Of a stretch of 17,536 nucleotides of DNA, positions 2,272-14,266 are shown piece after piece. The notes below the pieces were generated by a model. It saw nothing but the letters and a program-made list of their open reading frames with translations, did no database searches and was not told where the DNA came from. Source of the DNA: a virus; UHGV virus genome UHGV-1676750; one strand, 5' to 3'. The number at the start of each line of letters is the position of its first letter. Position 1 is the stretch's first letter. A program made the position numbers and the translations under genes.

Positions 2272-2320
2272 ATAGGGAACTGAACTTCACACGAAACGAA
2301 GATTGGTTCCCTATTTTTTT
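2271..2320 (+). terminator. Candidate intrinsic terminator
   Basis: AATAGGGAAC (2271-2280) pairs with GTTCCCTATT (2306-2315) and is followed by T7 (2314-2320). The loop is long (25 nt) with partial internal pairing. Confidence 0.5.
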
Positions 2321-2343
2321 ACGGACAAAAAGGAGAAAATAAT

Positions 2344-2568
2344 ATGATTAAATCACTGATCACGGGCCGAGAATACGAAGAAAATAACTGCATTTATATC
2401 ACAAACATGTTGCAAGCGCAGCGCTATCTCTCCTATCTCGGCCCCGAGTACCTTTTAGATATTCTCTACACAGGTACATACAGAAAGGATTCCTTAGTTT
2501 TTGTTTTTCAGCGTTGCCCAGAGACACGCAAAGCAAAGGAACTATGGGATAAGCACGAACTAAACTAA
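2344..2568 (+). CDS. Hypothetical small protein (74 aa)
   Basis: ATG at 2344 with AGGAG at 2331-2335. No recognisable motif. Confidence 0.6.
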   Translation: MIKSLITGREYEENNCIYITNMLQAQRYLSYLGPEYLLDILYTGTYRKDSLVFVFQRCPETRKAKELWDKHELN

Positions 2569-2586
2569 AAAAGCGAGGTGTACTAC

Positions 2587-2808
2587 ATGGACGCATCCAT
2601 ACTAGAAACACTTGCTCCAATCATCGGTGATACGCCCGTATCTGTGCAAATTAGCGCAGCACTTGAGCCAATGGCCTCAAAAAACTACGTGCACGATAAC
2701 TACGTCACACTCGATGATTTTGAAGAATTAAAAAGACAATTTGAAGCGCTAGTCGGAGATACGTCTGTTTCTGAACAAATTTCTACGGCGCTTAAAAATA
2801 ATAAATAA
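2587..2808 (+). CDS. Small fibre-motif protein (73 aa) carrying two copies of the VGDT-x-V-x-x-QI module
   Basis: ATG at 2587 with GAGGTG at 2575-2580; the track start at 2578 is a GTG inside the RBS. Contains IGDTPVSVQISAAL and VGDTSVSEQISTAL. Confidence 0.65.
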   Translation: MDASILETLAPIIGDTPVSVQISAALEPMASKNYVHDNYVTLDDFEELKRQFEALVGDTSVSEQISTALKNNK

Positions 2809-2835
2809 AACAATTCGTAAAAGGATGTGATAAAA

Positions 2836-3201
2836 TTGAGCACAAAAAAACTGCAAGTTTTAGATTATAAAATTAAGCAGGCTGAAAACGCTGATACTGT
2901 AGATAATAAGCACGCTTCTGACTTCGCATCCGCTACTGATATGAGCACGGCGCAAAATAATATTAGCGACCTTCAGGCAAAAGTCGGAGATACGCCTGTA
3001 TCTACGCAAATTACAAATGCTATCTCTTCAAACCGTATAGTTTACGTTCAAAACGAAGAGCCAGTTGATGCACCACCTGGATCGCTATGGGTGAATTTAG
3101 AATTGCAAAATACGGATGACTTTGTATCTGTTTATAAAGAAATTTTAATATTTGGAATACAATACGTTGCGCTTGTTGATAGTGATACTTTGATAATATG
3201 A
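2836..3201 (+). CDS. Short tail-fibre-like protein with one VGDT module and an EP…PPGSLW motif
   Basis: Probable TTG start at 2836, 10 nt after AAGGA (2821-2825); the GTG at 2827 is too close to the RBS. Contains KVGDTPVSTQITNAI and EEPVDAPPGSLWVNLE. Confidence 0.6.
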   Translation: MSTKKLQVLDYKIKQAENADTVDNKHASDFASATDMSTAQNNISDLQAKVGDTPVSTQITNAISSNRIVYVQNEEPVDAPPGSLWVNLELQNTDDFVSVYKEILIFGIQYVALVDSDTLII

Positions 3202-3211
3202 GGTGATGATA

Positions 3212-4171
3212 ATGGCAGATATAAGTAAAATTAATATTAAGAATGAACAATATGATATTAAAGATAATATCGCACGAACACATATAGCGAGCACAAGTAA
3301 TCCTCATGGCGTTACAGCTGAACAGGTCGGTGCAAGACCTGATACATGGATGCCTACAGCTGAACAGGTCGGTGCCGTAACGCCTGCGGAACTCAACGCC
3401 GCCATCCGCAAAGCCGCCCCGAGGAATCTGCTGGACAATTCCGATTTCAGGAATCCGGTGAATCAGAGGGGGCAGACGACATACACAAATAACGGTTACA
3501 CGATTGATCGATGGGAGCTATACAGTGGATTGATTGGCGTTTCTTCGGATGGTTATGTATCCACTAATGGACAAATGTATCAGAAAATCGAAATCGCCAC
3601 GGATAAAGTATATACATTTGCGGTCAAAACTGCCGCTGGAATAGCGGCTGTTACGGGAATCCCGGCAAACGGCGCAATCAATCCAGCAACGATTGGCAAC
3701 GCCTTGATTAAACTTGCTACGATTGGAGAGTATGTGGAAGTGGTCATCGAACCGGCTGAAGGATTCGATTTTGCTGGAGCATACTGGGCAGCCCTGTACG
3801 AAGGCTCTTACACTGCGGATACCCTTCCGGAGTACAAGCCGAAGGGGTACGGCGCGGAGCTGGCGGAATGTCAGAGGTATTACCAGCAGTTTTTAAACAA
3901 TGCGTTTTTAGGTTGGGCGACTGTTGATGCAGATGGCATTAACTTTCAGGGAATGATTCCCTGCGGCAGTATGCGGATTAATTCCCCCACGATTCTTGGC
4001 GGAATCTCCGCATGGACAGGCTTGGTTTCAATTGGCGTTTCTTCAGTTACAGTCTTTAATTATCAGGGCAATGGGATGCGGATTAACGGGTGTTTGGCGA
4101 GCAGCACAACGGCTGGCAGTGTCATTGCGATTTATGCTGCGGAAACGGTTGCATTTTCCGCTGACCTGTAA
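3212..4171 (+). CDS. Tail-fibre protein with a GC-rich, probably horizontally exchanged, C-terminal domain
   Basis: ATG at 3212 after GAGGTG. N-terminal SNPHGVTAEQVGA…PTAEQVGA is a duplicated fibre-type motif. G+C rises sharply from about 3340 onward (67% counted for 3361-3420). Confidence 0.7.
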   Translation: MADISKINIKNEQYDIKDNIARTHIASTSNPHGVTAEQVGARPDTWMPTAEQVGAVTPAELNAAIRKAAPRNLLDNSDFRNPVNQRGQTTYTNNGYTIDRWELYSGLIGVSSDGYVSTNGQMYQKIEIATDKVYTFAVKTAAGIAAVTGIPANGAINPATIGNALIKLATIGEYVEVVIEPAEGFDFAGAYWAALYEGSYTADTLPEYKPKGYGAELAECQRYYQQFLNNAFLGWATVDADGINFQGMIPCGSMRINSPTILGGISAWTGLVSIGVSSVTVFNYQGNGMRINGCLASSTTAGSVIAIYAAETVAFSADL

Positions 4172-4185
4172 AGGAGGAATGACAA

Positions 4186-4563
4186 ATGGAATATGAAAAT
4201 CCCTATATCGTGTATGTGAAAACCAATTCCAGCGGCTACATCACCGCCGTCAATTCCTCCGCTTTCCTGACGGACACTACGGACTGGACAGAAATCGACA
4301 GCGGCTATGGCGACAAATACCACCACGCGCAGGGAAACTACTTCCCCCAGCCAATCATCACCGACGGTGGTGCATACCGATATCGTCTGGTGGATGGAAA
4401 GCCTGTGGAATGTACCGCAGAGGAGATTGCGGAGCAGGAGGAGGCAATCAAATCTTCTATTATTACTGTACCAACTGCCGAGGAGCGCATTGCAGAGCTT
4501 GAAGCGCAGAATGAAATGTTACTTCAATGCGTACTCGAAATGAGTGAGACAGTTTATGCGTAA
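4186..4563 (+). CDS. Hypothetical protein directly downstream of the fibre gene; possible fibre-associated or chaperone-like protein (assigned by position only)
   Basis: ATG at 4186 with AGGAGG at 4174-4179. Shares the elevated G+C of the preceding fibre C-terminus. Acidic, helical-looking C-terminus. Confidence 0.55.
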   Translation: MEYENPYIVYVKTNSSGYITAVNSSAFLTDTTDWTEIDSGYGDKYHHAQGNYFPQPIITDGGAYRYRLVDGKPVECTAEEIAEQEEAIKSSIITVPTAEERIAELEAQNEMLLQCVLEMSETVYA

Positions 4564-4603
4564 AATATTATTTAACATACTTTTTGGAAAAGGAGGAGAA
4601 GAC

Positions 4604-4735
4604 ATGATGGCTATGTTATGGGCACAGCAAATTATGCTTGGCAAGAAGACCTTTGCGCAGGTTCCTCGTCTACTAAAAGACAAGGTTCGTGAGATTCTAG
4701 TAGATTCTGGCTGCGAAGATCTAATTGCAGAGTAA
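4604..4735 (+). CDS. Small protein (43 aa), possibly XkdX-like (low confidence)
   Basis: ATG at 4604 with AGGAGG at 4591-4596; the longer track ORF from 4544 lacks an RBS. The size and position after the fibre and fibre-associated genes resemble the PBSX xkdV-xkdW-xkdX order. Confidence 0.45.
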   Translation: MMAMLWAQQIMLGKKTFAQVPRLLKDKVREILVDSGCEDLIAE

Positions 4736-4772
4736 TCTGAACGAATATTACGCTAGGAGGTGCAAATAAAAA

Positions 4773-5195
4773 ATGGCAGAGTATATAACAAAAATTAGAA
4801 CTATGAATGGCGACTTGCAATATGACTATAATTCACTGTATGACAAACCAGAATCTGATACTCAATTAGAAAAATCAGGGGCGTTTGCCGATGCTCAGGT
4901 GGTTGGAAATAAAATTAAGAGCATAAATACACAACTGAATACCATTAATAGTCAGATTACAGAGATCAAGAATAGCACTCACGTTCATTCTGCAAATGAT
5001 ATTACTAGTGGTACACTAAGTGTTGACAGGCTGCCAACAATTCCGATTATAAAAGGCGGAACTGGAGCTGAAAATGGGCAAGATGGATTAAAGAATTTAT
5101 TAGCATCTGGGGCAATGATTTTGTCTGCTAATCAGTATGGGACTGACTTTCCAAGCAATCCAATTGTAGGTCAAGTCTTCTTTTTAAAGGTATAA
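4773..5195 (+). CDS. Short tail-fibre-like protein with a GGTGA motif and a P…P…GQVFF motif
   Basis: ATG at 4773 with AGGAGG at 4755-4760. Contains DRLPTIPIIKGGTGAENGQDGLKNLLA, as in fibre N-terminal regions, and ends …PSNPIVGQVFFLKV. Confidence 0.65.
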   Translation: MAEYITKIRTMNGDLQYDYNSLYDKPESDTQLEKSGAFADAQVVGNKIKSINTQLNTINSQITEIKNSTHVHSANDITSGTLSVDRLPTIPIIKGGTGAENGQDGLKNLLASGAMILSANQYGTDFPSNPIVGQVFFLKV

Positions 5196-5261
5196 ATTGG
5201 TGAGCTTTATGGAAGATATTTTACAAACTAATAAGTTAGTTAGATTGGCGGTGATTGCATA

Positions 5262-6152
5262 ATGGGAAGTGCTAGTGTATCCGCACCCACAACAGAGGGG
5301 ACTGTATTTGCATCAATAAGCTGGGATACTACTCCAACAGTATCTATAAGTATAACAGGCGGATATGGAATATCATGGAGAATTAGAGGTCGCGGAACAG
5401 ATACATATGTATATTATGGTCCAACAACTTCTTCGTCTGGTACGTTTACGGCAAGTTATGGAACAAGTTATGTACTTCAAGCAGTTAGCGACGGAGGATG
5501 GAATAATACTGGTGATAGTGTATTTACCGTCACGCAAGATGTTCACACTCACTCTTATTCTTTTTATACCACTGTTGACCCAACTTGTACTGAACAAGGT
5601 TATGAGATTTGGCGTTGTAGTGGTTGTGGTGATTTAGATTATAGAAATTATACTAACGCCCTTGGACATAACACTGTCAATACTGTTGTTACCCCGACCT
5701 GTACCGAACAAGGCTATACAACTCACATTTGCTCTCGTTGCGGAGCCACCACAAGCGCTAATGATAATTATACAAGTGCATTGGGCCACAATGATGCTAA
5801 TACTGTTGTTGCTCCAACTTGCACGGAACAAGGCTACACTAAGCATATTTGTTCCCGTTGTGGAATCACTATAAGTGCTAATGATAATTACATAAATGCT
5901 CTTGGACATGCGTGGGACGATGGTGAAATTATACTAGAACCAACTTATACCGAAGATGGAATTATAAAATATTTGTGTACAAGGTGCGGCGAAACTCGTA
6001 CAGAAGCTATAGCTAAAAAAGTTGGTTCGGTGCGTATTTATAACGGTTCAACTTTTGATATTTATAGTATCTATGTACGTGGAAAAGCGCAATCATGGGA
6101 TTTATATGTGCCGTACATATATAATGGATCAAGTTGGGATTTATATAGTTAG
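5262..6152 (+). CDS. Protein with four tandem ~40-aa Cys-rich (zinc-ribbon-like) repeats; putative binding or adhesin-type structural protein
   Basis: Repeats of H-x(9-11)-PTCTEQGY-x(4)-C-[ST]-x-CG-x(10-12)-ALG; the last copy is GHAWDDGEIILEPTYTEDGIIKYLCTRCGETRTEAI. Weak RBS; a 17-codon uORF (5209-5262) overlaps the start. Confidence 0.65.
   Translation: MGSASVSAPTTEGTVFASISWDTTPTVSISITGGYGISWRIRGRGTDTYVYYGPTTSSSGTFTASYGTSYVLQAVSDGGWNNTGDSVFTVTQDVHTHSYSFYTTVDPTCTEQGYEIWRCSGCGDLDYRNYTNALGHNTVNTVVTPTCTEQGYTTHICSRCGATTSANDNYTSALGHNDANTVVAPTCTEQGYTKHICSRCGITISANDNYINALGHAWDDGEIILEPTYTEDGIIKYLCTRCGETRTEAIAKKVGSVRIYNGSTFDIYSIYVRGKAQSWDLYVPYIYNGSSWDLYS
5544..6011 (+). repeat. Four tandem ~120-bp coding repeats (Cys-rich module) inside the 5262-6152 CDS
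   Basis: Units at roughly 5544-5666, 5667-5786, 5787-5906 and 5907-6011. Units 2 and 3 are clearly similar at nucleotide level (shared …CAAGGCTA… and …GCTAATGATAATTA… stretches). Confidence 0.7.
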
Positions 6153-6163
6153 GAGGTGAATAG

Positions 6164-6880
6164 ATGCCTCAGAACATCTTTAAAATCTATGATGGTAGAA
6201 CGAACTTTTGGCAATGGGACACTAAGCAGAAATTGATTGTTTTAGATGATCGTATTACAGAAGTTCGTTTTTCTAATAGAAATATGGAACACTCAAAACG
6301 TAGACCTGTCTACACGGACAATAATGGAGTTAGAATTTGTAATGTGCCTGATGTGCTCTTGCAACTTCCTAAGAATCTTATAGCGTATGCGTGTATTAAG
6401 CAAGACGATGGGACTTGTAGCACAGTAAAAGCGGTCAAGTTTGCAGTTGCTAGACAGCCAATTCCTGCGGATTATGTGTGTGAGCAAGATGCAGTTATTG
6501 AAAACATTCTCGCAAAGATCGAGATGCTTGAGAATTTACTCAAAGAAGTTGAGTCTGGATCAAAAGAAATGAAGAAGTTCACTAGCATGGTGGAAGCTGC
6601 ACAATGGGCCAAAGAAAATGGCAACGCTGGTGACATTGTTGTCATCAAACTTGATGTAGGTTGGGTGCCTCATGTTATTGAAGACGGCAAGAGTCTAAGC
6701 GCTATTTGCAACTGTGATGGCGATGAGATTGTTCTTCAGCTCGACGGAGATGACCCCGACGGCATTAATGAAGACGAAGAAGATATGGTTCTGTATTATG
6801 ACGGTAATTATATTGACGAAAGTAACGATGTAATTCAGTATTTTGATGGCGGTTCCGCATCTGGTTTACAAACGGGGTGA
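6164..6880 (+). CDS. Hypothetical phage protein (238 aa) with an acidic C-terminus
   Basis: ATG at 6164 with AGGAGGTGA at 6151-6159. No named motif. Confidence 0.7.
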   Translation: MPQNIFKIYDGRTNFWQWDTKQKLIVLDDRITEVRFSNRNMEHSKRRPVYTDNNGVRICNVPDVLLQLPKNLIAYACIKQDDGTCSTVKAVKFAVARQPIPADYVCEQDAVIENILAKIEMLENLLKEVESGSKEMKKFTSMVEAAQWAKENGNAGDIVVIKLDVGWVPHVIEDGKSLSAICNCDGDEIVLQLDGDDPDGINEDEEDMVLYYDGNYIDESNDVIQYFDGGSASGLQTG

Positions 6881-6884
6881 GAGA

Positions 6885-7244
6885 ATGGCCGATATAAGAA
6901 AAGTAAAAACTGTATTTCAAATCAGGCGCTCGACGACTGCGGAATGGGAAGCGAATAAAGATGCAATTCCTGATGCCGGAGAGCCCTGTTTTGATTTAGA
7001 CTTTGGTATATTAAAAATTGGTGATGGAAAGACCGCTTATAAAGACCTCAAGATTATTGGTGCTGGCGCTTCAATATCTGACGATGGTCTTTATTTAATT
7101 GTTGATAATTTGCAGAAAGATATCGATGAATTAAAGATCCGCATTGAAAATATTTCTGTTGAAGATCAAATTAATGATGCTATGAGCGATATTGTGGATG
7201 ACTCAGAATTACAGCAAACTCTGGATTCTGTGTTAAATAATTAA
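6885..7244 (+). CDS. Short fibre paralogue: HylP-like N-terminal attachment domain plus a short helical tail (possibly a truncated or minimal fibre)
   Basis: MADIRKVKTVFQIRRSTTAEWEANKDAIPDAGEPCFDLDFGILKIGDGKTAYKDLKIIG matches the conserved N-terminus of Gram-positive phage fibre/hyaluronidase (HylP) proteins: FQ/K-R-R…AEW…GE…D…KIGDG…Y…L. Confidence 0.7.
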   Translation: MADIRKVKTVFQIRRSTTAEWEANKDAIPDAGEPCFDLDFGILKIGDGKTAYKDLKIIGAGASISDDGLYLIVDNLQKDIDELKIRIENISVEDQINDAMSDIVDDSELQQTLDSVLNN

Positions 7245-7263: not shown

Positions 7264-8679
7264 ATGGCAATTAAAAAAATCAAGACATTGTTCCAACTCC
7301 GCAGGGGAACCACTGCCGAATGGGAACTCAATAAATCCGTAGTTCCCGCCGCTGGTGAACCGTGTTTTGATCTAGACCTTGGTACACTCAAAATTGGCGA
7401 CGGCGTTAAAACCTATGAGCAATTAGATGTAATTGGCGGCGGCAATGTAGCGCTTTCTGCCGATGGCAAGTCTATCATTTTGGATGACGGCATTTTTAAG
7501 CTTGCTGGTTTTGCCGATGCTGAAACTGGTGCTCAGCCTCGCAAGAACGCCGACGGCAATATTGAGTGGGTTGTACCTTCTAGCGAAACTCTTGATGGTC
7601 TACAGACAATTGTCGCTGGTTTACAAACTGACGTTACTGGATTGCAAACTAGCGTTGCTAGTATTCAGGAGGTTCTAGCTCCATCCGATGAAGGTGCAAT
7701 GACTCTACTAGAGAGAGTTGCCGCAATTGAGGGTAAGGTTGGCGAAAGCTCTGTTGATGAAAAAATTAACACTGCCTTTGACGACTTTATGGCAAAAGTT
7801 TCTGATGATGGCATCGTCAATACTGTCAAAGAACTAATTGACTATGTAGCAGACCATGCGCCCGAGGCCGCTCAGATGGCCGCTGATATTACTAGTCTGC
7901 AAGAACTTGTTGGTAACACCTCTGTTGATGCCCAAATTCTAGCTGCCATTACTACAAGCGAAGCAAAAACCGCTGCTCTTTACAAGAAAGTAAAATATGA
8001 GATTTCTTCTAAGCCCGCCGAAGCTTTAGTGGACTATAGAGAGAAAGAAATCAGAATTATGTGTCCCGCTGATACTCAATTTGAGCTTCAGAATGTTGGT
8101 CCTACTGGTGATTCTACTAGATACTATATTGGATTTAAGGCATATGCCCCTGATGGCGCTGTAAGCTTTAAGGAAGATACTAAGGCTACCATTGAAGATA
8201 CTACTATGTATTACTTTGAAGGCAATGATTTTGCTGGCACTGATGCTTATGGTCGTAAGTATAGTATTGTATGGCTACCTGTGGCAAAGCATAATGATGA
8301 TGATACTTGGACTTATTATGGTACTAATTCTAGTGCTGCCAAGTATATTGGCTGGTACTACTCTGTCGAGTGGTATGGTGCTAATGGTAAGGTTATTGCG
8401 TCTGATATCATTCGTATTAATCTAAGTAATGAGGCTTGCCATAATGTGGTTGAGCCTTATTTTATGGGCCAAGTTGTTAAGGGAGTTAGCGTTGGTGGAA
8501 CTCTGCTTGATTTGATTGACAATAAGGTTAATATTAATGCCAGTGATATTGTTAAAGGGTCTGATGAAATTGCGGTTGCTGAGGACGGGACTCTAAGCAT
8601 TGGCCAAATTAATGTGTCCAAGCTGGTGCAGGATGAAGGCTCCGAGCTAGTCTTTGATGGCGGCGGGGCTTCTAGATAA
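7264..8679 (+). CDS. Tail-fibre protein with a HylP-like N-terminal domain, GLQTxVx heptad repeats and VGxxSVD-x-x-I modules
   Basis: ATG at 7264, 8 nt after AAAGGAAG. N-terminus TLFQLRRGTTAEWELNKSVVPAAGEPCFDLDLGTLKIGDGVKTYEQL. Three 21-bp tandem heptad repeats at 7597-7659. Contains LVGNTSVDAQILAAI and KVGESSVDEKINTAF. Confidence 0.8.
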   Translation: MAIKKIKTLFQLRRGTTAEWELNKSVVPAAGEPCFDLDLGTLKIGDGVKTYEQLDVIGGGNVALSADGKSIILDDGIFKLAGFADAETGAQPRKNADGNIEWVVPSSETLDGLQTIVAGLQTDVTGLQTSVASIQEVLAPSDEGAMTLLERVAAIEGKVGESSVDEKINTAFDDFMAKVSDDGIVNTVKELIDYVADHAPEAAQMAADITSLQELVGNTSVDAQILAAITTSEAKTAALYKKVKYEISSKPAEALVDYREKEIRIMCPADTQFELQNVGPTGDSTRYYIGFKAYAPDGAVSFKEDTKATIEDTTMYYFEGNDFAGTDAYGRKYSIVWLPVAKHNDDDTWTYYGTNSSAAKYIGWYYSVEWYGANGKVIASDIIRINLSNEACHNVVEPYFMGQVVKGVSVGGTLLDLIDNKVNINASDIVKGSDEIAVAEDGTLSIGQINVSKLVQDEGSELVFDGGGASR

Positions 8680-8726: not shown

Positions 8727-10664
8727 ATGGCTATTGAAAAAACACTTAATACTCGTCTGAAACTTCGTTACGATTCTCATGAGAATTGGCTTGCTAATGA
8801 TCCTACTCTGCTTGCAGGCGAAGTCGCTCTAAGTGCTGTATCTGTTAAGCAGGACGGCGTAGTTAACGAAGTCCCCAGCGTACTAATTAAAGTTGGCGAT
8901 GGCACTCATAAGTATTCCGAACTAGATTATGCTTACGCGAGGGCGGCAGATGTCATCGAGCAGGCTAAGAGTGCAGAAAAGCTAACCGATTTCATCAACA
9001 ATGTAATTGCTAGTGCTGGTATTGCCACTGACGAGGCTCTAACTACTCTAGCTGGTAAGGTTACTACTGCCGAAGGCAAGATCACTGCTCTAGAAGGTCT
9101 AGTTGGCGATACTGCCGTAGCCACTCAGATTCAGAATAAGATTGATGCTCTGAAACTATCCGATACCTATGCCGCAAAGTCTCACACTCATACTAAGTCT
9201 GAGATTACTGATTTTGCGCATACTCATGTTATTGGTGATGTAACTGGTTTAAGCGATTCTATTGCTGAAGCTAAGCAGACTGGCCTTGACGCAACTTCTG
9301 CTCTTAATACTTATAAGAATACTAATGATGCTGCTGTAAAGGCCAATACTGATGCAATTGCTGCTATTAACAACGCTGACACTGGTATTCTTGCTCAGGC
9401 TAAGACTTATGCTGACGGAAAGGATGCCGCTATTACCGCTGCTAAGAATGCTGCTGATGCTGCTCAGGCTGACGTTGACGCCCTAGAAGCTAAGGTCGGC
9501 ACTGTCCCTGCAGATACCACTGTTGTCCAGATGATTGCTGACGCCCAGGATGCTGCTACTTATGATGACACTGCTCTAAAGGGTCGTGTAAGCGCAAACG
9601 AGACTGCTATTAGCAAGCTAAATGGGCTTGTCGGTGACACCGCTGTCGCCACTCAGATTAGCACTGCTGTTTCCGATGCTAAGACTGAGCTAAAGGGTAG
9701 CGCTTCCGATACCGATGCTTCTGCTACTATTGCTGGCGCTAAGAAGTATGCTGACAAGCTAGATGCTGCTATGGATGCTCGTGTTGATGCTCTAGAGGCT
9801 GCTGTTGGCGAAGATGGTTCTGTTGCAGAGAAGATCACTGCCGCAGTTGAAGCTCTTGACGCTACCGTTGAGACCGCTGCAATCCCAGAAGGTCAGGACG
9901 GTATTTATGTAAAGGTTACCGAGGTTGATGGTAAGCTAACTGCTGTTGAGGCTACTATCGAAGTATCTAATGAGATTAATGCTGCTAAGTCCGAGCTTGA
10001 GGACAAGATTGGTACTGTTGCCGAGGGTAAGACTCTTGCTGGTCTAATCGCTGACAATGCTGCCGCTATTGAGGCTCATAAGACTGCGGTCGATGCTAAG
10101 GTAACCACTCTAATTGGTGCTGATACCGACAAATCCGTGCGTACTATTGCTAATGAGGAACTGGCTGCTCAGCTGATTCCTGAGAACGCTAAGGAATCTC
10201 TAAATACCCTACAGGAGATCGCTGCTTGGATTCAGGCTCACCCCGATGATGCCGCTACAATGAATACGGCCATTGCAAACCTAAAGGCGCTAGTTGGTGA
10301 CGAAAGTGTTAACGCTCAGATTAATACTGCCGTTGACAACCTAAAGAATAACGAGATTAAGAACGCAACTGATCGCATTGCAGATCTAGAGGCTGATACT
10401 CACACTCATGCCAACAAGGCCCTGCTCGATTCTTACACTCAGACCGAAGCTGACCTGGCTGACGCCGTTGCTAAGAAGCACGAGCACGCTAATGCTACCG
10501 AACTGGCCAAGTTCGTTGAGGGTGATAAGGATAAGCTAGATGCCGCCGTTCAGACTGTTACCGCTGGCACTGGCCTCACCGCAACTAAGACTGGTACTGA
10601 TGTAGCTATTGGATTTGACGATACTGTCACTTTCGTGTTTGACTGCGGCGATAGCTCCATCTAA
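8727..10664 (+). CDS. Long tail-fibre protein: HylP-like N-terminus (variant), Ala-rich helical shaft, three VGD-x-x-V-x-x-QI modules and HTH/HxH motifs
   Basis: ATG at 8727 with AAGGAG at 8711-8716. Contains LVGDTAVATQIQNKI, LVGDTAVATQISTAV, LVGDESVNAQINTAV, SHTHTKSEITDFAHTHV and DTHTHANKALLDSY. G+C is visibly higher than in flanking AT-rich genes. Confidence 0.8.
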   Translation: MAIEKTLNTRLKLRYDSHENWLANDPTLLAGEVALSAVSVKQDGVVNEVPSVLIKVGDGTHKYSELDYAYARAADVIEQAKSAEKLTDFINNVIASAGIATDEALTTLAGKVTTAEGKITALEGLVGDTAVATQIQNKIDALKLSDTYAAKSHTHTKSEITDFAHTHVIGDVTGLSDSIAEAKQTGLDATSALNTYKNTNDAAVKANTDAIAAINNADTGILAQAKTYADGKDAAITAAKNAADAAQADVDALEAKVGTVPADTTVVQMIADAQDAATYDDTALKGRVSANETAISKLNGLVGDTAVATQISTAVSDAKTELKGSASDTDASATIAGAKKYADKLDAAMDARVDALEAAVGEDGSVAEKITAAVEALDATVETAAIPEGQDGIYVKVTEVDGKLTAVEATIEVSNEINAAKSELEDKIGTVAEGKTLAGLIADNAAAIEAHKTAVDAKVTTLIGADTDKSVRTIANEELAAQLIPENAKESLNTLQEIAAWIQAHPDDAATMNTAIANLKALVGDESVNAQINTAVDNLKNNEIKNATDRIADLEADTHTHANKALLDSYTQTEADLADAVAKKHEHANATELAKFVEGDKDKLDAAVQTVTAGTGLTATKTGTDVAIGFDDTVTFVFDCGDSSI

Positions 10665-10743: not shown

Positions 10744-11589
10744 ATGCCAAATAAAGAAATATTGGCCCGTGTCAAGCAAAAAAGAGATACGAGCGCTAAC
10801 TGGGAAGCACGAAATCCAGTTATTTTAAATGGCGAGATTATTCTCGTAGATACCAACGCAGGCGAGCTTAGAGCTAAAATTGGCGATGGTACAAAAACGT
10901 ATACTCAGCTACCTTTTTCAGATGAAGCTTTAAGAAGCCTCATCAATGCAAATAAGGTTACGGTAGATAGTGCGCTGTCTTCTACTAGTACCAATCCTGT
11001 ACAGAATAAAATTGTAAACGCCGCCATTAGCAACTTGAATACTTTGGTTGGTGATACCTCTATATCTTCTCAAATCGAAACTGCTGTTGCTTCAAAGCTC
11101 GACGCCGCAGATGCGACTTGGGCTCAGATTTATGATTCTGGCGCAATTACATCAGAAGTAAACTCTATTGCGGGCATTGATATCACAGGTTATAAGAGTC
11201 TAATGGTTGCTGTTAAGTGTGTAAACACTACGAATACCGCCAGTACAAGAGCTGGTGCGGTAATTTTTACTGGCAATAATCAAGACTATGCGTTTAATAA
11301 TCTTTTTAGCAACCTGATTAAAAATGGTACAACAACTTCCGGTGCTATGGCTAAATTTAAGATCGTGGACGGTTTTATTATTTGTGAGACTGCTATGAGA
11401 GCAATTACTGCGGATGGCATTTTATCTGATGCCGAAGGGGTAGGAATTGATACATTAGCCCCAGTAAGTAGTGGTCTTATTAAGTGTACAAACGCAGTCA
11501 CTACAATGGCCGTTTCTAGTGCGGCTCAGTCTGCAGACCATTACTACGGTGTTGGTAGTAGAGTTATTGTTTGGGGGTGTAAGGTATAA
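10744..11589 (+). CDS. Tail-fibre protein with a HylP-like N-terminal domain and one VGDT module
   Basis: N-terminus ILARVKQKRDTSANWEARNPVILNGEIILVDTNAGELRAKIGDGTKTYTQLPF. Contains LVGDTSISSQIETAVASKL. Confidence 0.8.
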   Translation: MPNKEILARVKQKRDTSANWEARNPVILNGEIILVDTNAGELRAKIGDGTKTYTQLPFSDEALRSLINANKVTVDSALSSTSTNPVQNKIVNAAISNLNTLVGDTSISSQIETAVASKLDAADATWAQIYDSGAITSEVNSIAGIDITGYKSLMVAVKCVNTTNTASTRAGAVIFTGNNQDYAFNNLFSNLIKNGTTTSGAMAKFKIVDGFIICETAMRAITADGILSDAEGVGIDTLAPVSSGLIKCTNAVTTMAVSSAAQSADHYYGVGSRVIVWGCKV

Positions 11590-11963
11590 TGGCAAATAAA
11601 ACAATTACAGCATGGGTAAATGGTGCAGTTCAGTCAATTAGTGTTCCAGACGTGGCATATACTGCTCCTAAAGTTACCATTGAGGACAAGGTTAGTGCTC
11701 TTATTGCTACAGTGACACTGCCAGTCGCTGATTGGGCGGGTTCAGCAAGTCCGTATTATCAGACGATAGACTCTAATATTTTTACCGCCAATAGTATGGT
11801 TGATTTACAGCCAACCCCTGAGCAGCTTGCGGAATGGCAAGATGATGGACTGGCTTTTAGCACCACAAATGATAATGGAGTGGTGAAGGTATATGTTGCT
11901 GGTGGTGTACCTGCTGCCGATATTACTGTACAGATTAAGGTACAGGAGGTGGTTGTCATATGA
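11589..11963 (+). CDS. Hypothetical protein carrying a ~85-aa domain that is also present at the C-terminus of the 16021-16617 product
   Basis: TAATG overlap with the upstream gene. TLPVADWAGSASPYYQT…DITVQIKVQEV parallels TIPVNWVGTSAPYTQD…EVPIQVEVI in 16021-16617. Confidence 0.7.
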   Translation: MANKTITAWVNGAVQSISVPDVAYTAPKVTIEDKVSALIATVTLPVADWAGSASPYYQTIDSNIFTANSMVDLQPTPEQLAEWQDDGLAFSTTNDNGVVKVYVAGGVPAADITVQIKVQEVVVI

Positions 11964-12451
11964 TATATGGCAATGCAACTGGTGGCTTTGGAATGCCAAA
12001 GTCATTTGTTTTAACAGATGATAGTGGAAATGAAATGACAGGGGTTGTAACTGGTGAACAAGTTGTATTTACAGCTGGTTTAAGCGATATTAGAGCGGGT
12101 AAGGTTGCAGCCAATGCAGATGGTATTGTTACTGGTACGAAAGATATACCAGCATATCATACTACAGAAGGTCATCGAGTAATTACACCTGGAAGTGATT
12201 GTAAAATCTATATTCCTAATTACGAATATACCGGTTTACAAGCTATAGTTTGTTCATACAATACCTCTTTAGATGATAGTGTTGCCGCTAATCAAGTTGC
12301 CATTAAAGGCAATTTATATAATGTACAATCTGTAGACATATTATCTATAATTAGTATAGATAATACAGATCAGTGTATTAATTTAGGGATTACAAACACA
12401 ACTGATAATTTATTAATTATTAGATATTTTAGTTATAAGGAGATTTTATGA
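11960..12451 (+). CDS. Hypothetical protein (163 aa), Gly/Thr-rich N-terminus
   Basis: ATGA overlap with the upstream gene; AGGAGGT at 11944-11950. AT-rich (about 22% G+C counted for 12301-12360). Confidence 0.7.
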   Translation: MIYGNATGGFGMPKSFVLTDDSGNEMTGVVTGEQVVFTAGLSDIRAGKVAANADGIVTGTKDIPAYHTTEGHRVITPGSDCKIYIPNYEYTGLQAIVCSYNTSLDDSVAANQVAIKGNLYNVQSVDILSIISIDNTDQCINLGITNTTDNLLIIRYFSYKEIL

Positions 12452-12690
12452 TGGAAACGAGACGTTATGCATATAATTTTGCAGAAATTGATAATGCCAC
12501 TAATATGTGTATTGGTGTTATAACTACTACAGATCCAAACACAGAAGGTCCAACTGGTGGTGGAACAACTTTTGTTGCAATTCCAGTATATGATGAGAAT
12601 TATTCTTTAAAATATTACAATTGGGATAATGGTAAATTTTATTATGACTCTGCGTATACACAGGAGTACATTTCTCCATTACTACAATAA
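12448..12690 (+). CDS. Hypothetical small protein (80 aa)
   Basis: ATGA overlap with the upstream gene (translational coupling). No named motif. Confidence 0.6.
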   Translation: MMETRRYAYNFAEIDNATNMCIGVITTTDPNTEGPTGGGTTFVAIPVYDENYSLKYYNWDNGKFYYDSAYTQEYISPLLQ

Positions 12691-12712
12691 TTAAACAAAG
12701 GGGCGACGGATT

Positions 12713-12883
12713 ATGAATAAATATTTCTATTGTTATAGCTATCCATTAAAAGAATTTTTCAAAAAAAACGGCTTAAGTTACATTACCGCCGCTACGAATC
12801 ATTCAACAAATAAAACGTATTGGTTGTTTGAAGGATCTGAAAAATTAAATATGTTATTACAAAAATGGCGTTTAAATAAATAA
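12713..12883 (+). CDS. Unannotated small ORF (56 aa), hypothetical; absent from the ORF track because it is under 60 aa
   Basis: ATG at 12713 preceded by AAAGGGG. Translates to MNKYFYCYSYPLKEFFKKNGLSYITAATNHSTNKTYWLFEGSEKLNMLLQKWRLNK. Contains an A8 run at 12761-12768. The stop codon is embedded in the hairpin at 12862-12893. Confidence 0.4.
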   Translation: MNKYFYCYSYPLKEFFKKNGLSYITAATNHSTNKTYWLFEGSEKLNMLLQKWRLNK

Positions 12884-12900
12884 ACGTCATTTTCTATTTT
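12862..12900 (+). terminator. Candidate AT-rich intrinsic terminator
   Basis: AAAATGGCGTTT (12862-12873) pairs with AAACGTCATTTT (12882-12893): 12-bp stem with one G-U wobble and an 8-nt loop, followed by CTATTTT. The stem is AT-rich, hence modest stability. Confidence 0.4.
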
Positions 12901-12928
12901 ACAAATGATGTTTTGGAGGTAACTAAAG

Positions 12929-14266
12929 ATGAAGAAGTTGACGCATGAAGAATTTATTGAGAAAGTAACGAAACTCAACGAACATGTTGCAAATGGTGAG
13001 ATAGAAATATTAAGTCAGTATATAAACCAAAGAACTAAAATTAAATGTAAATGTGCCATACATAATACTATATGGGAGAGATCGGTACAAAGCCTTTACG
13101 AAAATAGTGGTTGTGAAGATTGTAAATATGAATTAAGTGGAAGAAAAAGACGGTTTTCACATGAAGAATTTGTTGAAAAGATAAAGGTTTTAAATGATGA
13201 AATTATAGTTTTGGGACATTATACAACGATGAATAAATCAATTGAATTTCAATGTAAATTTGGTCATATATGGACAGCCAAGCCTTATAGCATTATCAAT
13301 GGGCATCAATGTCCATATTGTGCTGGGCAAAAACCTATAATTGGGAATAATGACTTATGGACAACAAGACCAGACGTTGCAAGTTTATTAAAAAATCGTG
13401 ATGACGGATATGGTTTGATGGAATTTAGTCAGCGTAAAGTAATATTTATTTGTCCAACATGCGGTAACGAAATCATAAAATCAGTTCAACGTGTATCAAT
13501 AGATGGGCTTGTTTGCCAAAGATGTTCTGATGGTGTATCATATCCGAATAAATTTGCAAGAGCATTTTTAAATCAACTACTTGGTAATAATTTTAAATGT
13601 GAGTATCAACCTGATTGGGCCAAACCATATTATTATGATAATTATTTTGAATATGGTAATAAGAAATATATTTTGGAGATGGATGGCAGTTTTCATTATA
13701 TTTCAAGACAGTTGACCAAACAGTCTCTTGATGAACGAAAAAGGATTGATGCATTAAAAGATAAACTTGCTGAGCAACATAATATTCGTGTTATTCGTAT
13801 AGAGTGTATAAAATCTAATTGTAATTACATAAAGAATAACATTTTACAATCCGAGTTGAGTTTAGTTTTTAATTTATCTAAGATTAATTGGGATTTATGC
13901 GACCAAATGGCGCAAAGAAGTTTGGTTAAAGATGTTTGTAATTTATATATGAACGGAATAAAAGATTTGCATAAAATAGCAGAAATATTGCATATTAGCA
14001 AAAGTACGGTATATGTATATTTGGTTAGAGGTTCTAAGTTTGGATGGTGTGATTACGATGGGAAGAATGCTCATTACTTGAAAATTTCTATTCCAATAAT
14101 TGTACTTGATGAAAATAACAATGCTATACATAAGTTTGATAGTATTAGTGCGTGCAAAGAAGAGATGAAAAAAATGTACGGATATTCATTTGATAGAAAT
14201 ACTTTGAAAAAAGCTTGTGAGTATTCTATTTCATATCATGGATTTAACTTTAAATATGCGTATTAA
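12929..14266 (+). CDS. Multi-domain homing-endonuclease-like protein: tandem zinc-ribbon modules, a Vsr/DUF559-like PD-(D/E)xK nuclease core, a helix-turn-helix and a NUMOD1-like C-terminal DNA-binding domain
   Basis: Two ~60-aa repeats ([TS]HEEF[IV]EK…LN…C-x-x-H…W…G-x-x-C-x-x-C) and a third CPTCG…CQRCS module. KKYILEMDGSFHYI…DERKRIDALKDKLAEQHNIRVIRIE resembles the DUF559/Vsr-like endonuclease motif. KIAEILHISKSTVYVYL is HTH-like. The C-terminus IPIIVLDENNNAIHKFDSISACKEEM…YHGFNFKY parallels the C-terminus of the GIY-YIG protein. Very AT-rich. RBS GGAGGT at 12915-12920. Confidence 0.65.
   Translation: MKKLTHEEFIEKVTKLNEHVANGEIEILSQYINQRTKIKCKCAIHNTIWERSVQSLYENSGCEDCKYELSGRKRRFSHEEFVEKIKVLNDEIIVLGHYTTMNKSIEFQCKFGHIWTAKPYSIINGHQCPYCAGQKPIIGNNDLWTTRPDVASLLKNRDDGYGLMEFSQRKVIFICPTCGNEIIKSVQRVSIDGLVCQRCSDGVSYPNKFARAFLNQLLGNNFKCEYQPDWAKPYYYDNYFEYGNKKYILEMDGSFHYISRQLTKQSLDERKRIDALKDKLAEQHNIRVIRIECIKSNCNYIKNNILQSELSLVFNLSKINWDLCDQMAQRSLVKDVCNLYMNGIKDLHKIAEILHISKSTVYVYLVRGSKFGWCDYDGKNAHYLKISIPIIVLDENNNAIHKFDSISACKEEMKKMYGYSFDRNTLKKACEYSISYHGFNFKYAY

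Follow-up and report, generated by a model that had tools for sequence, protein, structure and literature searches.

How did a phage tail fibre gene and the small gene behind it come to differ in composition from the genome that carries them? This question is raised by one locus of UHGV virus genome UHGV-1676750, analysed here as a stretch of 17,536 nucleotides (nt) that we call the window. The fibre gene (positions 3212 to 4171) encodes 319 amino acids and is followed by a gene for a protein of 125 amino acids (4186 to 4563; here, the partner). An initial annotation had read the C-terminal part of the fibre and the partner as one cassette, a receptor-binding domain plus its partner gene, acquired from a higher-G+C donor by recombination at a conserved fibre motif. 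We find that the C-terminal part and the downstream gene are indeed compositionally foreign and common to many unrelated phages, and that the low-G+C fibre N-terminus is present only in one other locus, L012. The whole region from 3212 to 4735, however, is probably a host-recognition module that evolves by homologous recombination at conserved islands, with the cores between them swapped from a pool shared among Clostridia phages, rather than the product of one acquisition.

The compositional anomaly is well defined. A two-change-point likelihood fit to the third codon positions of the genes between 2578 and 6152 placed a block of high G+C at these positions (GC3) at 3367 to 4660, with support intervals of 3325 to 3394 on the left and 4648 to 4696 on the right. 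GC3 is 0.54 inside the block and 0.27 outside it (2dLL, twice the log-likelihood difference, 80.7), a value reached by 0 of 200 permutations; as expected of an exchanged segment, synonymous-site composition differs from that of the flanks beyond chance. The jump within the fibre gene is thus real, and it is abrupt. Starting directly 3' of the second copy of a short direct repeat, third-position G+C passes from 13 of 55 (start codon to the end of that copy) to 25 of 34 over the next 34 codons. Against a window mean G+C of 0.403, the fibre gene as a whole has a G+C of 0.48 and a GC3 of 0.47, and the partner gene 0.49 and 0.56; the remaining 23 genes of the window range in GC3 from 0.16 to 0.48, mostly about 0.3. 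Because the other stretches of about 0.5 G+C (for example, 9400 to 10600, GC3 0.37) owe their richness to first codon positions, the fibre tract is the only synonymous-site anomaly of its kind.

Two base counts had been offered in support of the jump, 40 of 60 at 3361 to 3420 and 13 of 60 at 12301 to 12360. Both were exact on recounting, but the second interval is an unrepresentative comparator inside an AT-rich island bearing an HNH gene. This island (11960 to 14266; G+C 0.25 to 0.33, GC3 0.16 to 0.26) is a second and opposite compositional anomaly of the window, and the gene within it (12929 to 14266) encodes an HNH homing endonuclease (phrog_559, E = 6e-44). The fade reported near 4450 to 4530 is likewise a real fall, from a GC3 of about 0.7 to about 0.4 to 0.47, but it is a step internal to the module, which by homology runs to about 4736 and includes a third gene, encoding a CD1375-like protein. 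Because a promoter and terminator scan of 2300 to 5400 gave fewer sites than shuffled sequence, the module carries no regulatory boundary mark. Its parts are as follows, all on the plus strand.

3212 to 4171, plus strand: fibre gene, comprising the first eight parts below
3212 to 3313, plus strand: fibre N-terminal anchor (MADISKINIKNEQYDIKDNIARTHIASTSNPHGV), of backbone-type composition (third-position G+C 6/34)
3313 to 3375, plus strand: 1.5 units of a 42-nt fibre repeat, TAEQVGA-RPDTWMP-TAEQVGA, with identical 21-nt half-units at 3313 to 3333 and 3355 to 3375
3377 to 3418, plus strand: G+C-rich linker VTPAELNAAIRKAA, a predicted helix (residues 58 to 68 in the model), where the GC3 step begins (10/14)
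3419 to 3480, plus strand: conserved motif PRNLLDNSDFRNPVNQRG, the left conserved island and the point from which fibres on unrelated backbones are homologous
3481 to 3783, plus strand: variable core of putative receptor-binding domain A, a predicted beta-sandwich (predicted local distance difference test score [pLDDT] above 85)
3784 to 3886, plus strand: central conserved island (WAALYEGSYTADTLPEYKPKGYGAELAECQRYY), which takes in, as modelled, the final strand of domain A, a connector and a helix
3887 to 4156, plus strand: variable core of putative receptor-binding domain B, a second predicted beta-sandwich (pLDDT 83 to 97)
4157 to 4171, plus strand: conserved C-terminal end of the fibre (..FSADL) with its stop codon, which opens the right-hand conserved block
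4186 to 4450, plus strand: partner N-terminal globular domain, with the highest GC3 in the window (about 0.65 to 0.73)
4451 to 4563, plus strand: partner C-terminal helix (PTAEERIAELEAQNEMLLQCVLEMSETVYA; model helix 98 to 124), where GC3 is down to about 0.4
4604 to 4735, plus strand: CD1375-like small protein of 43 amino acids, the last gene of the shared module by homology

Where do these parts have their nearest relatives? The window as a whole had no megablast match among 50,697 phage records, and tblastn of the fibre gave one weak match only. An independent ENA contig, L008 (9972 bp), is nearly identical to the window, with 3 differences in 9972 positions. The only backbone relative found is L012 (1.8 kb), which is 75% identical over the end of the upstream gene, where no other fetched locus matches. 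Scans of IMG/VR and of JGI metagenomes with the first 55 residues of the fibre returned only generic matches to the motif H..TSNPHGVTAxQVGA and distant N-terminal look-alikes, none of which shares the backbone; because neither scan found another backbone relative, L012 is the one reference on which breakpoints are mapped. Identity to L012 is 0.91 to 0.93 over 3216 to 3305, drops to 0.68 to 0.76 over 3351 to 3485 and to about 0.4 to 0.5 in the domain cores, and recovers in islands at 3801 to 3890 and 4296 to 4385. Its fibre protein, P0090, has a window-type N-terminus (MADISKINIKNEQYDIKDNIAR.HIA.TSNPHGVTA.QVGA) with a single TAxQVGA unit; its receptor domain shares 48% identity with that of the window.

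When the segments were compared separately, by block-wise blastn against 246 other fetched loci, each block had different best loci. The flanks (2827 to 3201 and 4773 to 5195) match L012 only or nothing, and the next gene after the module (4773 to 5195) has no match in any fetched locus; the nearest relatives of the segment are thus unlike those of its flanks. The first 101 nt of the fibre gene match the DNA of L012 only, at 92%, and the anchor sequence MADISKINIKNEQYDIKD marks the lineage of the window, L008 and L012. The block of repeat and linker is nearest to L081, L087 and others (about 80 to 84%). Homology with other backbones begins at 3410 to 3419, at PRNLLDNSDF, and not at the repeat motif where the crossover had been placed. 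The PRNLLDN motif block is found in 21 loci, with best matches of 85 to 91%, and the island at 3419 to 3480 is 86 to 90% identical to L009, L010, L017 and L024 at the DNA level. At the protein level, alignments to most of the 120 listed fibre homologues (BLASTP) start at residue 70, and upstream of that residue these homologues carry at least eight unrelated N-termini. N72, L74, D75, N76, S77 and Q85 are invariant in the left island.

Downstream of this island, conserved and variable stretches alternate. The core of domain A has DNA matches only in L009, L010 and L011 (75.8%); its protein is about 80% identical to L010-type fibres and 30 to 50% identical to the rest, and it is present twice in tandem in many longer fibres. 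Over residues 70 to 229, many of the listed homologues are about 80% identical, with divergence beyond; others keep about 57% identity over residues 70 to 319. The central island is matched by 36 loci at about 80% nucleotide identity, with Y196, G198, Y200, P206, Y208, K211 and C220 invariant. For the core of domain B, we found no DNA match in any fetched locus and no protein match at 60% coverage or more. The right-hand block then opens sharply, with alignments of 82 to 84% nucleotide identity to L014 to L018 that all start at 4157; D318 and L319 are nearly invariant. In the partner gene, 72 loci match the N-domain at the DNA level (best, L016 at 80.6% and two loci of high G+C, the Faecousia locus L079 at 79.6% and L021 at 79%), the C-terminal helix is 88 to 89% identical only to the low-G+C loci L014 to L018, and the block of helix and CD1375-like gene is nearest to the same loci (88 to 91%).

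The identities of domain A and partner are also uncoupled, contrary to what a joint cassette of the two would predict. L009 and L010 have a domain A that is 80% identical in amino acids and partners that are only 60 to 66% identical, and L014 to L017 have partners that are 80 to 85% identical and a domain A of 39 to 48%. Within the tract the nearest relative switches at least four times, a pattern that does not fit a single donor and a single event. By these alignments, the tract is a patchwork of variable cores set between short conserved islands at 3419 to 3480, 3784 to 3886 and from 4157 onward.

The direct repeat at the left edge had been taken as a duplicated junction. It is a perfect repeat, as described, but its length is 21 nt (TACAGCTGAACAGGTCGGTGC) rather than 20, each copy (3313 to 3333 and 3355 to 3375) being one base longer than reported (3314 to 3333 and 3356 to 3375). 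The copies are in frame at 42-nt spacing and both encode TAEQVGA (codons 3314 to 3334 and 3356 to 3376), and 0 of 200 dinucleotide-preserving shuffles contained even one match to the repeat at three or fewer mismatches. What the copies belong to is a 42-nt (14-residue) fibre-shaft repeat, PTAEQVGARPDTWM, of which the window has 1.5 units and other phages have 1 to 7 or more. The Faecousia-assigned locus L081 has three units with a 42-nt period and 74% identity between units, L087 (G+C 0.62) has at least six copies, and L088 (G+C 0.55) has two 21-mers, 90% identical, at 42-nt spacing, in an arrangement (TAEQVGARPDSWMPTAAQVGAV..NRNLLDN) that mirrors the window. Proteins P0082, P0092 and P0102 each contain several copies of a PTAxxVGARPDTWM-type repeat. 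The TAxQVGA motif occurs once in L012 and as two diverged units in L013, and relative to L012 the window has exactly one 42-nt unit more. In-frame 42-nt periodicity and a copy number that varies among relatives thus characterize a 14-residue tandem repeat, PTAxxVGARPDTWM; the motif that precedes it, H..TSNPHGVTAxQVGA, is widespread among viral contigs of 0.33 to 0.65 G+C. Tandem Repeats Finder did not report the 42-nt repeat of the window because only 1.5 units are present and their second halves differ.

By these comparisons, the repeat is part of a variable-copy stalk repeat; it is not a junction scar, because a homologous crossover leaves one copy. Both copies, moreover, lie on the resident side of the step, since both use low-G+C codons. 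The sole unusual trait of the repeat is the 21/21 identity of its copies, which suggests that a unit was recently duplicated or converted in the lineage of the window. Recombination within or beside the 42-nt repeat is plausible. A second fibre gene of the window (7264 to 8679) carries a repeat of its own, a 21-nt tandem repeat at 7616 to 7656 in two copies of 80% identity that encodes GLQT.V.GLQT.

The placement of the GC3 step right after the second repeat copy is what a single cassette would predict if it had arrived from one higher-G+C donor in one event, with crossover at TAEQVGA and the duplicated 20 bp as its scar, and such an origin would also account for the arrangement of L088 and for the number of relatives with higher-G+C backbones. 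We nonetheless consider this origin unlikely. Two copies are present where crossover at the motif would leave one, and these copies are units of a periodic repeat found in many fibres, with low-G+C codons in both. L012 has the step together with a different receptor domain and one unit only, homology reaches 4736, and the blocks differ in their nearest relatives, domain A being uncoupled from partner identity. The idea of a higher-G+C source fares better in part. Most relatives of the module reside in Oscillospiraceae-type phages and prophages of 0.50 to 0.62 G+C, with Faecousia, Oscillospiraceae and Clostridia metagenome-assembled genomes as the prophage hosts. In an unbootstrapped neighbour-joining tree of the partner N-domain, the window adjoins a Faecousia prophage with a 0.56 G+C backbone, and the sequences of low-G+C backbones lie dispersed among those of high-G+C backbones. 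A higher-G+C donor pool is therefore supported in general terms, but a single donor is not, and none of these relatives pinpoints a specific one.

Short exact repeats and conserved motifs are also the classic places for assembly misjoins, and the metagenome assembler could have put together reads of two phages at one of them. The structure recurs in L008, however, and misassembly is unlikely because this independent contig differs from the window at only 3 of its 9972 positions. L012, from another sample, joins the same N-terminus to a PRNLLDN-type domain and partner, and the reading frame is intact over every junction. We regard an assembly chimera as extremely improbable.

Is the module also out of place elsewhere? 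Its three genes stand out as a G+C-rich island in unrelated backbones of low G+C too. In L014 (G+C 0.336), fibre and partner have a G+C of 0.47 to 0.48, and the genes immediately flanking the module have 0.18 to 0.31. In L009 and L010, module GC3 is 0.44 to 0.70, against about 0.3 to 0.4 in the upstream structural genes. L012 shows the same step, with a GC3 of 0.20 in the fibre N-terminus, 0.33 to 0.67 beyond it in the fibre and 0.76 in the partner; because L012 has it too, the compositional step is a trait of the lineage rather than the mark of a unique recent acquisition. We compared backbone and module across 42 non-redundant loci, with these mean G+C values for the two backbone groups.

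Low-G+C backbones (14 loci): backbone 0.392, fibre tip 0.444, partner N-domain 0.488
High-G+C backbones (25 loci): backbone 0.545, fibre tip 0.479, partner N-domain 0.583

Against backbone G+C, fibre-tip values have a slope of 0.21 and those of the partner N-domain a slope of 0.61. The fibre tip thus exceeds low-G+C backbones in G+C and falls short of high-G+C ones, as would be expected if its parts came from a pool exchanged across hosts that differ in G+C.

The same near-constancy, with fibre-tip G+C at 0.44 to 0.48 across backbones of 0.33 to 0.62 and below that of the backbone in high-G+C phages, is an argument for a reading without any transfer, in which the G+C is intrinsic (through amino-acid content, codon selection for expression, or a structural constraint on DNA or mRNA) and the similarity to other phages reflects vertical conservation of a module that evolves slowly. 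Several observations make this very unlikely. The anomaly sits at third codon positions, and neither the flanks nor the fibre N-terminus has detectable similarity to the phages that share the module. Partner and CD1375-like DNA is 82 to 89% identical on otherwise unrelated backbones, some of them with recoded TAG. Partner GC3 also tracks the backbone in part (slope 0.61), as expected of foreign DNA drifting toward backbone composition.

The recoded backbones are of interest in themselves. Low-G+C contigs L014, L015, L016 and L017 share window positions 4157 to 4736 at 82 to 89% nucleotide identity, and TAG occurs in frame in these low-G+C contigs (8, 1 and 3 in the genes checked; for example, at codon 14 of L014 9076 to 9987 and codons 6 and 11 of L017 1 to 849) and never as a terminator, for which reason we take them to be TAG-recoded phages. 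TAG probably encodes glutamine in these phages, because L017 NLNDI#NEII#N (#, TAG) aligns with NLNDIQNEIIQN of P0097. In the recoded fibre genes, TAG is found only in the backbone-specific N-terminal part; the receptor domain, partner and CD1375-like gene together have no in-frame TAG in about 1250 codons, against 7 in 2794 backbone codons of L014, a difference that is only suggestive. The window itself shows no sign of recoding. Two of the contigs also carry a major-vault-protein-like gene (Pfam MVP_shoulder, 836 amino acids), directly after the CD1375-like gene in L017 (1758 to 4268) and a few small genes further downstream of the module in L016 (2601 to 3332).

What kind of protein, then, is being shuffled? 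The fibre gene matches two tail fibre families, phrog_4492 (E = 2.1e-8, residues 53 to 261) and phrog_8147 (E = 6.6e-4, residues 6 to 41), and this profile match to annotated families identifies it as a phage tail fibre; its neighbours are other fibre-like genes, and Pfam and NCBIfam gave no family for the protein. The expected position in a tail operon, after the tape measure or distal tail genes and before lysis, is seen in relatives rather than in the window. In L010 the order is tape measure protein, Prophage_tail, further genes, fibre, partner, CD1375-like protein and holin, and in phage HM T it is tape measure protein, tail protein, minor structural protein, a gene in the fibre position and partner.

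An AlphaFold2 model of the fibre (mean pLDDT 79; 83 to 97 over residues 101 to 319 except for one linker block at 66) consists of a disordered N-terminus, a helix at residues 58 to 68, a beta-sandwich at about 90 to 197, a connector helix at 212 to 223 and a second beta-sandwich at 224 to 316. From this layout, the DNA islands would correspond to structural joints and the variable stretches to the cores of the sandwiches. The predicted tip models as beta-sandwiches resembling carbohydrate-binding modules (CBMs), and these domains may bind a cell-surface glycan. Sequence identity of the tip to the beta-jelly-roll CBM4, CBM16, CBM22, CBM61 and CBM70 and to CBM-like baseplate and fibre proteins is 8 to 17%. 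The fibre had no profile match to any PDB sequence, and Foldseek against the PDB gave nothing significant. At the other end of the protein, the N-terminal motif MADISKINL..Y.IKD..AR also heads other fibres on contigs of 143 to 197 kb. In three of these (L090, L092 and L094; jumbo-phage-sized, G+C 0.42), the anchor motif reads MADISKINL.G.VY.IKDSVAR (match at about 6001 to 6105) and precedes a different fibre body of about 400 amino acids; because it heads different bodies on such contigs, the anchor is itself a reusable module.

The partner belongs to an abundant family that has no name. Its sole match is phrog_24451, a family of unknown function (E = 1.5e-24), and none of 4260 homologues at E of 1e-3 or below is named or has a Pfam domain. 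The closest are 88 to 91% identical, and the partner is far more conserved than the fibre; within the family, the N-domain varies little and the C-terminal tail exists in several versions. The model (pLDDT 91) has a small beta domain (residues 7 to 75) and two helices (78 to 92 and 98 to 124). In searches for known tail-fibre assembly and chaperone families (Caudo_TAP/Tfa type and XkdW), Pfam gave no family at E of 0.1 or below (for seven homologues, weak coiled-coil noise was all that appeared at E of 1 or below), NCBIfam nothing relevant, a PDB profile search only bZIP coiled-coil noise and Foldseek against the PDB no match.

The partner always lies behind a fibre ending in ..SADL, and a protein of about 45 residues comes next in most loci examined. 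This order recurs in L009, L010, L014, L016, L017 and L088; two cultured Clostridium phages, HM T and Amboise, have it too, with all of these gene products annotated as hypothetical. We infer that the partner most likely serves the fibre as an assembly factor or distal accessory; because it does not covary with the variable receptor cores, its target on the fibre would be a conserved one, the connector or else the C-terminal end. The third gene (4604 to 4735) scores 30.1 bits against Pfam PF23792 (cut-off, 27) and 19.7 bits against NCBIfam NF040910 (cut-off, 22.5), matches phrog_1382 (E = 1.8e-17) and is 88 to 91% identical to L014 to L018 at the DNA level. A search of the literature on CD1375, XkdW and XkdX found no functional information.

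Taken together, these results can be assembled into a model. In a phage that probably infects gut Clostridia, the module would comprise the tail fibre, the 125-residue partner and the 43-residue CD1375-like protein, with the fibre built from a lineage-specific anchor, a stalk of 14-residue repeats, a helical linker, two sandwich domains and a conserved ..FSADL end. Crossover would occur at short islands of DNA that are 80 to 90% identical between unrelated phages, namely PRNLLDNSDFRNPVNQRG (3419 to 3480), the connector (3784 to 3886) and the block from 4157 to 4736, and the variable receptor-binding cores between them would be swapped independently. The pool of parts would be common to phages with backbones of 0.33 to 0.62 G+C, mostly high-G+C Oscillospiraceae phages and prophages. 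As a product of this shared pool, the module would keep an intermediate composition (G+C about 0.48, GC3 about 0.54) and so stand out in a genome of 0.40. The exact 21-nt repeat would stem from a recent change of copy number by one unit, or from gene conversion, immediately 5' of the compositional joint.

Several points weigh against this reading. Its breakpoints are placed where identity falls or composition changes in a few comparator loci, and a single backbone relative of 1.8 kb, L012, is available for them. The neighbour-joining tree of the partner N-domain is without bootstrap support. Constraint on amino acids or codons, rather than exchange, could be what keeps the G+C of the fibre tip nearly constant. 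The role proposed for the partner, finally, draws on gene position and conservation, and the partner matches no chaperone family or solved fold. We offer one extension as possible though doubtful, in which the three genes would form a portable host-recognition kit that moves among gut Clostridia phages of differing G+C and genetic code, kept free of TAG so that it can be read in either code, with the partner as a new class of assembly or capping protein acting on a conserved part of the fibre.

The surroundings of the module are also rich in fibre-like genes, with two homing-endonuclease genes among them. In addition to the HNH gene, a GIY-YIG/NUMOD3 homing-endonuclease gene (1006 to 1833) has a virion structural gene on one side and the fibre genes on the other. 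Four consecutive genes (6885 to 7244, 7264 to 8679, 8727 to 10664 and 10744 to 11589) have an Mtd_N-type or related N-terminus (Pfam PF18454, E = 2e-10 and 4e-13; phrog_19976 and phrog_23595) and, with those at 2578 to 3201, 4773 to 5195, 5262 to 6152 and 6164 to 6880, make an unusually long fibre-like run. The gene at 5262 to 6152 (296 amino acids) encodes four tandem Cys-rich units (..ALGHN..NTVV.PTCTEQGYT.HICSRCG..) with weak, sub-threshold zinc-finger matches and is the only gene of the window that ends in TAG. We also considered the fibre of the module as a target of a diversity-generating retroelement, a candidate that was dropped because this fibre lacks an Mtd_N domain and no template repeat was seen.

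The choice of bacterial host most likely lies with this fibre region. Recombination of such modules is a familiar route by which phages switch host. Its conserved joints (3419 to 3480, 3784 to 3886 and 4157 to 4736) are natural splice points for the prediction or engineering of host range in phages of hard-to-culture Oscillospiraceae and other gut Clostridia. The analysis also brings to notice an abundant, unnamed partner family that always accompanies such fibres.

How does the module compare with known systems? Mosaic fibre loci include gp37/gp38 of the T-even phages and the fibre (H/S) and assembly (G/U, stf/tfa) genes of P2, Mu, P1 and lambda. Work by Haggard-Ljungquist (1992), Sandmeier (1994) and Tetart (1998) is said to have established these as the classical mosaic tail-fibre loci. 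The module resembles them in its virion-specific N-terminus, exchanged C-terminus, short motifs as likely recombination sites and downstream candidate assembly gene, and in an atypical composition that is frequent among them. It differs in its probable Gram-positive Clostridia hosts, in having no invertible segment and in its protein families, the partner having no match to a Pfam tail-fibre assembly family at E of 0.1 or below. A second likeness is to contractile-tail elements of Firmicutes, with the xkdV-xkdW-xkdX genes of PBSX and the CD1375 family of C. difficile, since a CD1375-like gene follows fibre and partner and, in relatives, precedes the holin or lysis genes. XkdW consists of a small domain and then a C-terminal helix, and the partner, in the position of XkdW, has a similar layout; homology between the two was rejected, as neither profile nor fold searches support it.

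Another parallel comes from Alteromonas phages A5 and V22, in which modules of a fibre and a downstream chaperone are common to unrelated phages through horizontal transfer and recombination (PMC10579305). There, too, a fibre gene is followed by a small partner gene, domain order is conserved and conserved sequences flank the insertable or variable domains. The chaperone role was shown there by experiment and is proposed for the partner here by inference, and no relationship in sequence or fold between the two systems was tested or is expected. In the window, by contrast, the partner is much more conserved than the receptor domains and does not covary with them, and a third gene, the CD1375-like one, travels along. 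Mosaic tail fibres of atypical composition are textbook material, and this module is of that known kind; mild novelty lies in a partner family that is abundant yet unannotated, in a fibre-tip G+C that hardly varies between backbones and in the module being common to TAG-recoded phages too.

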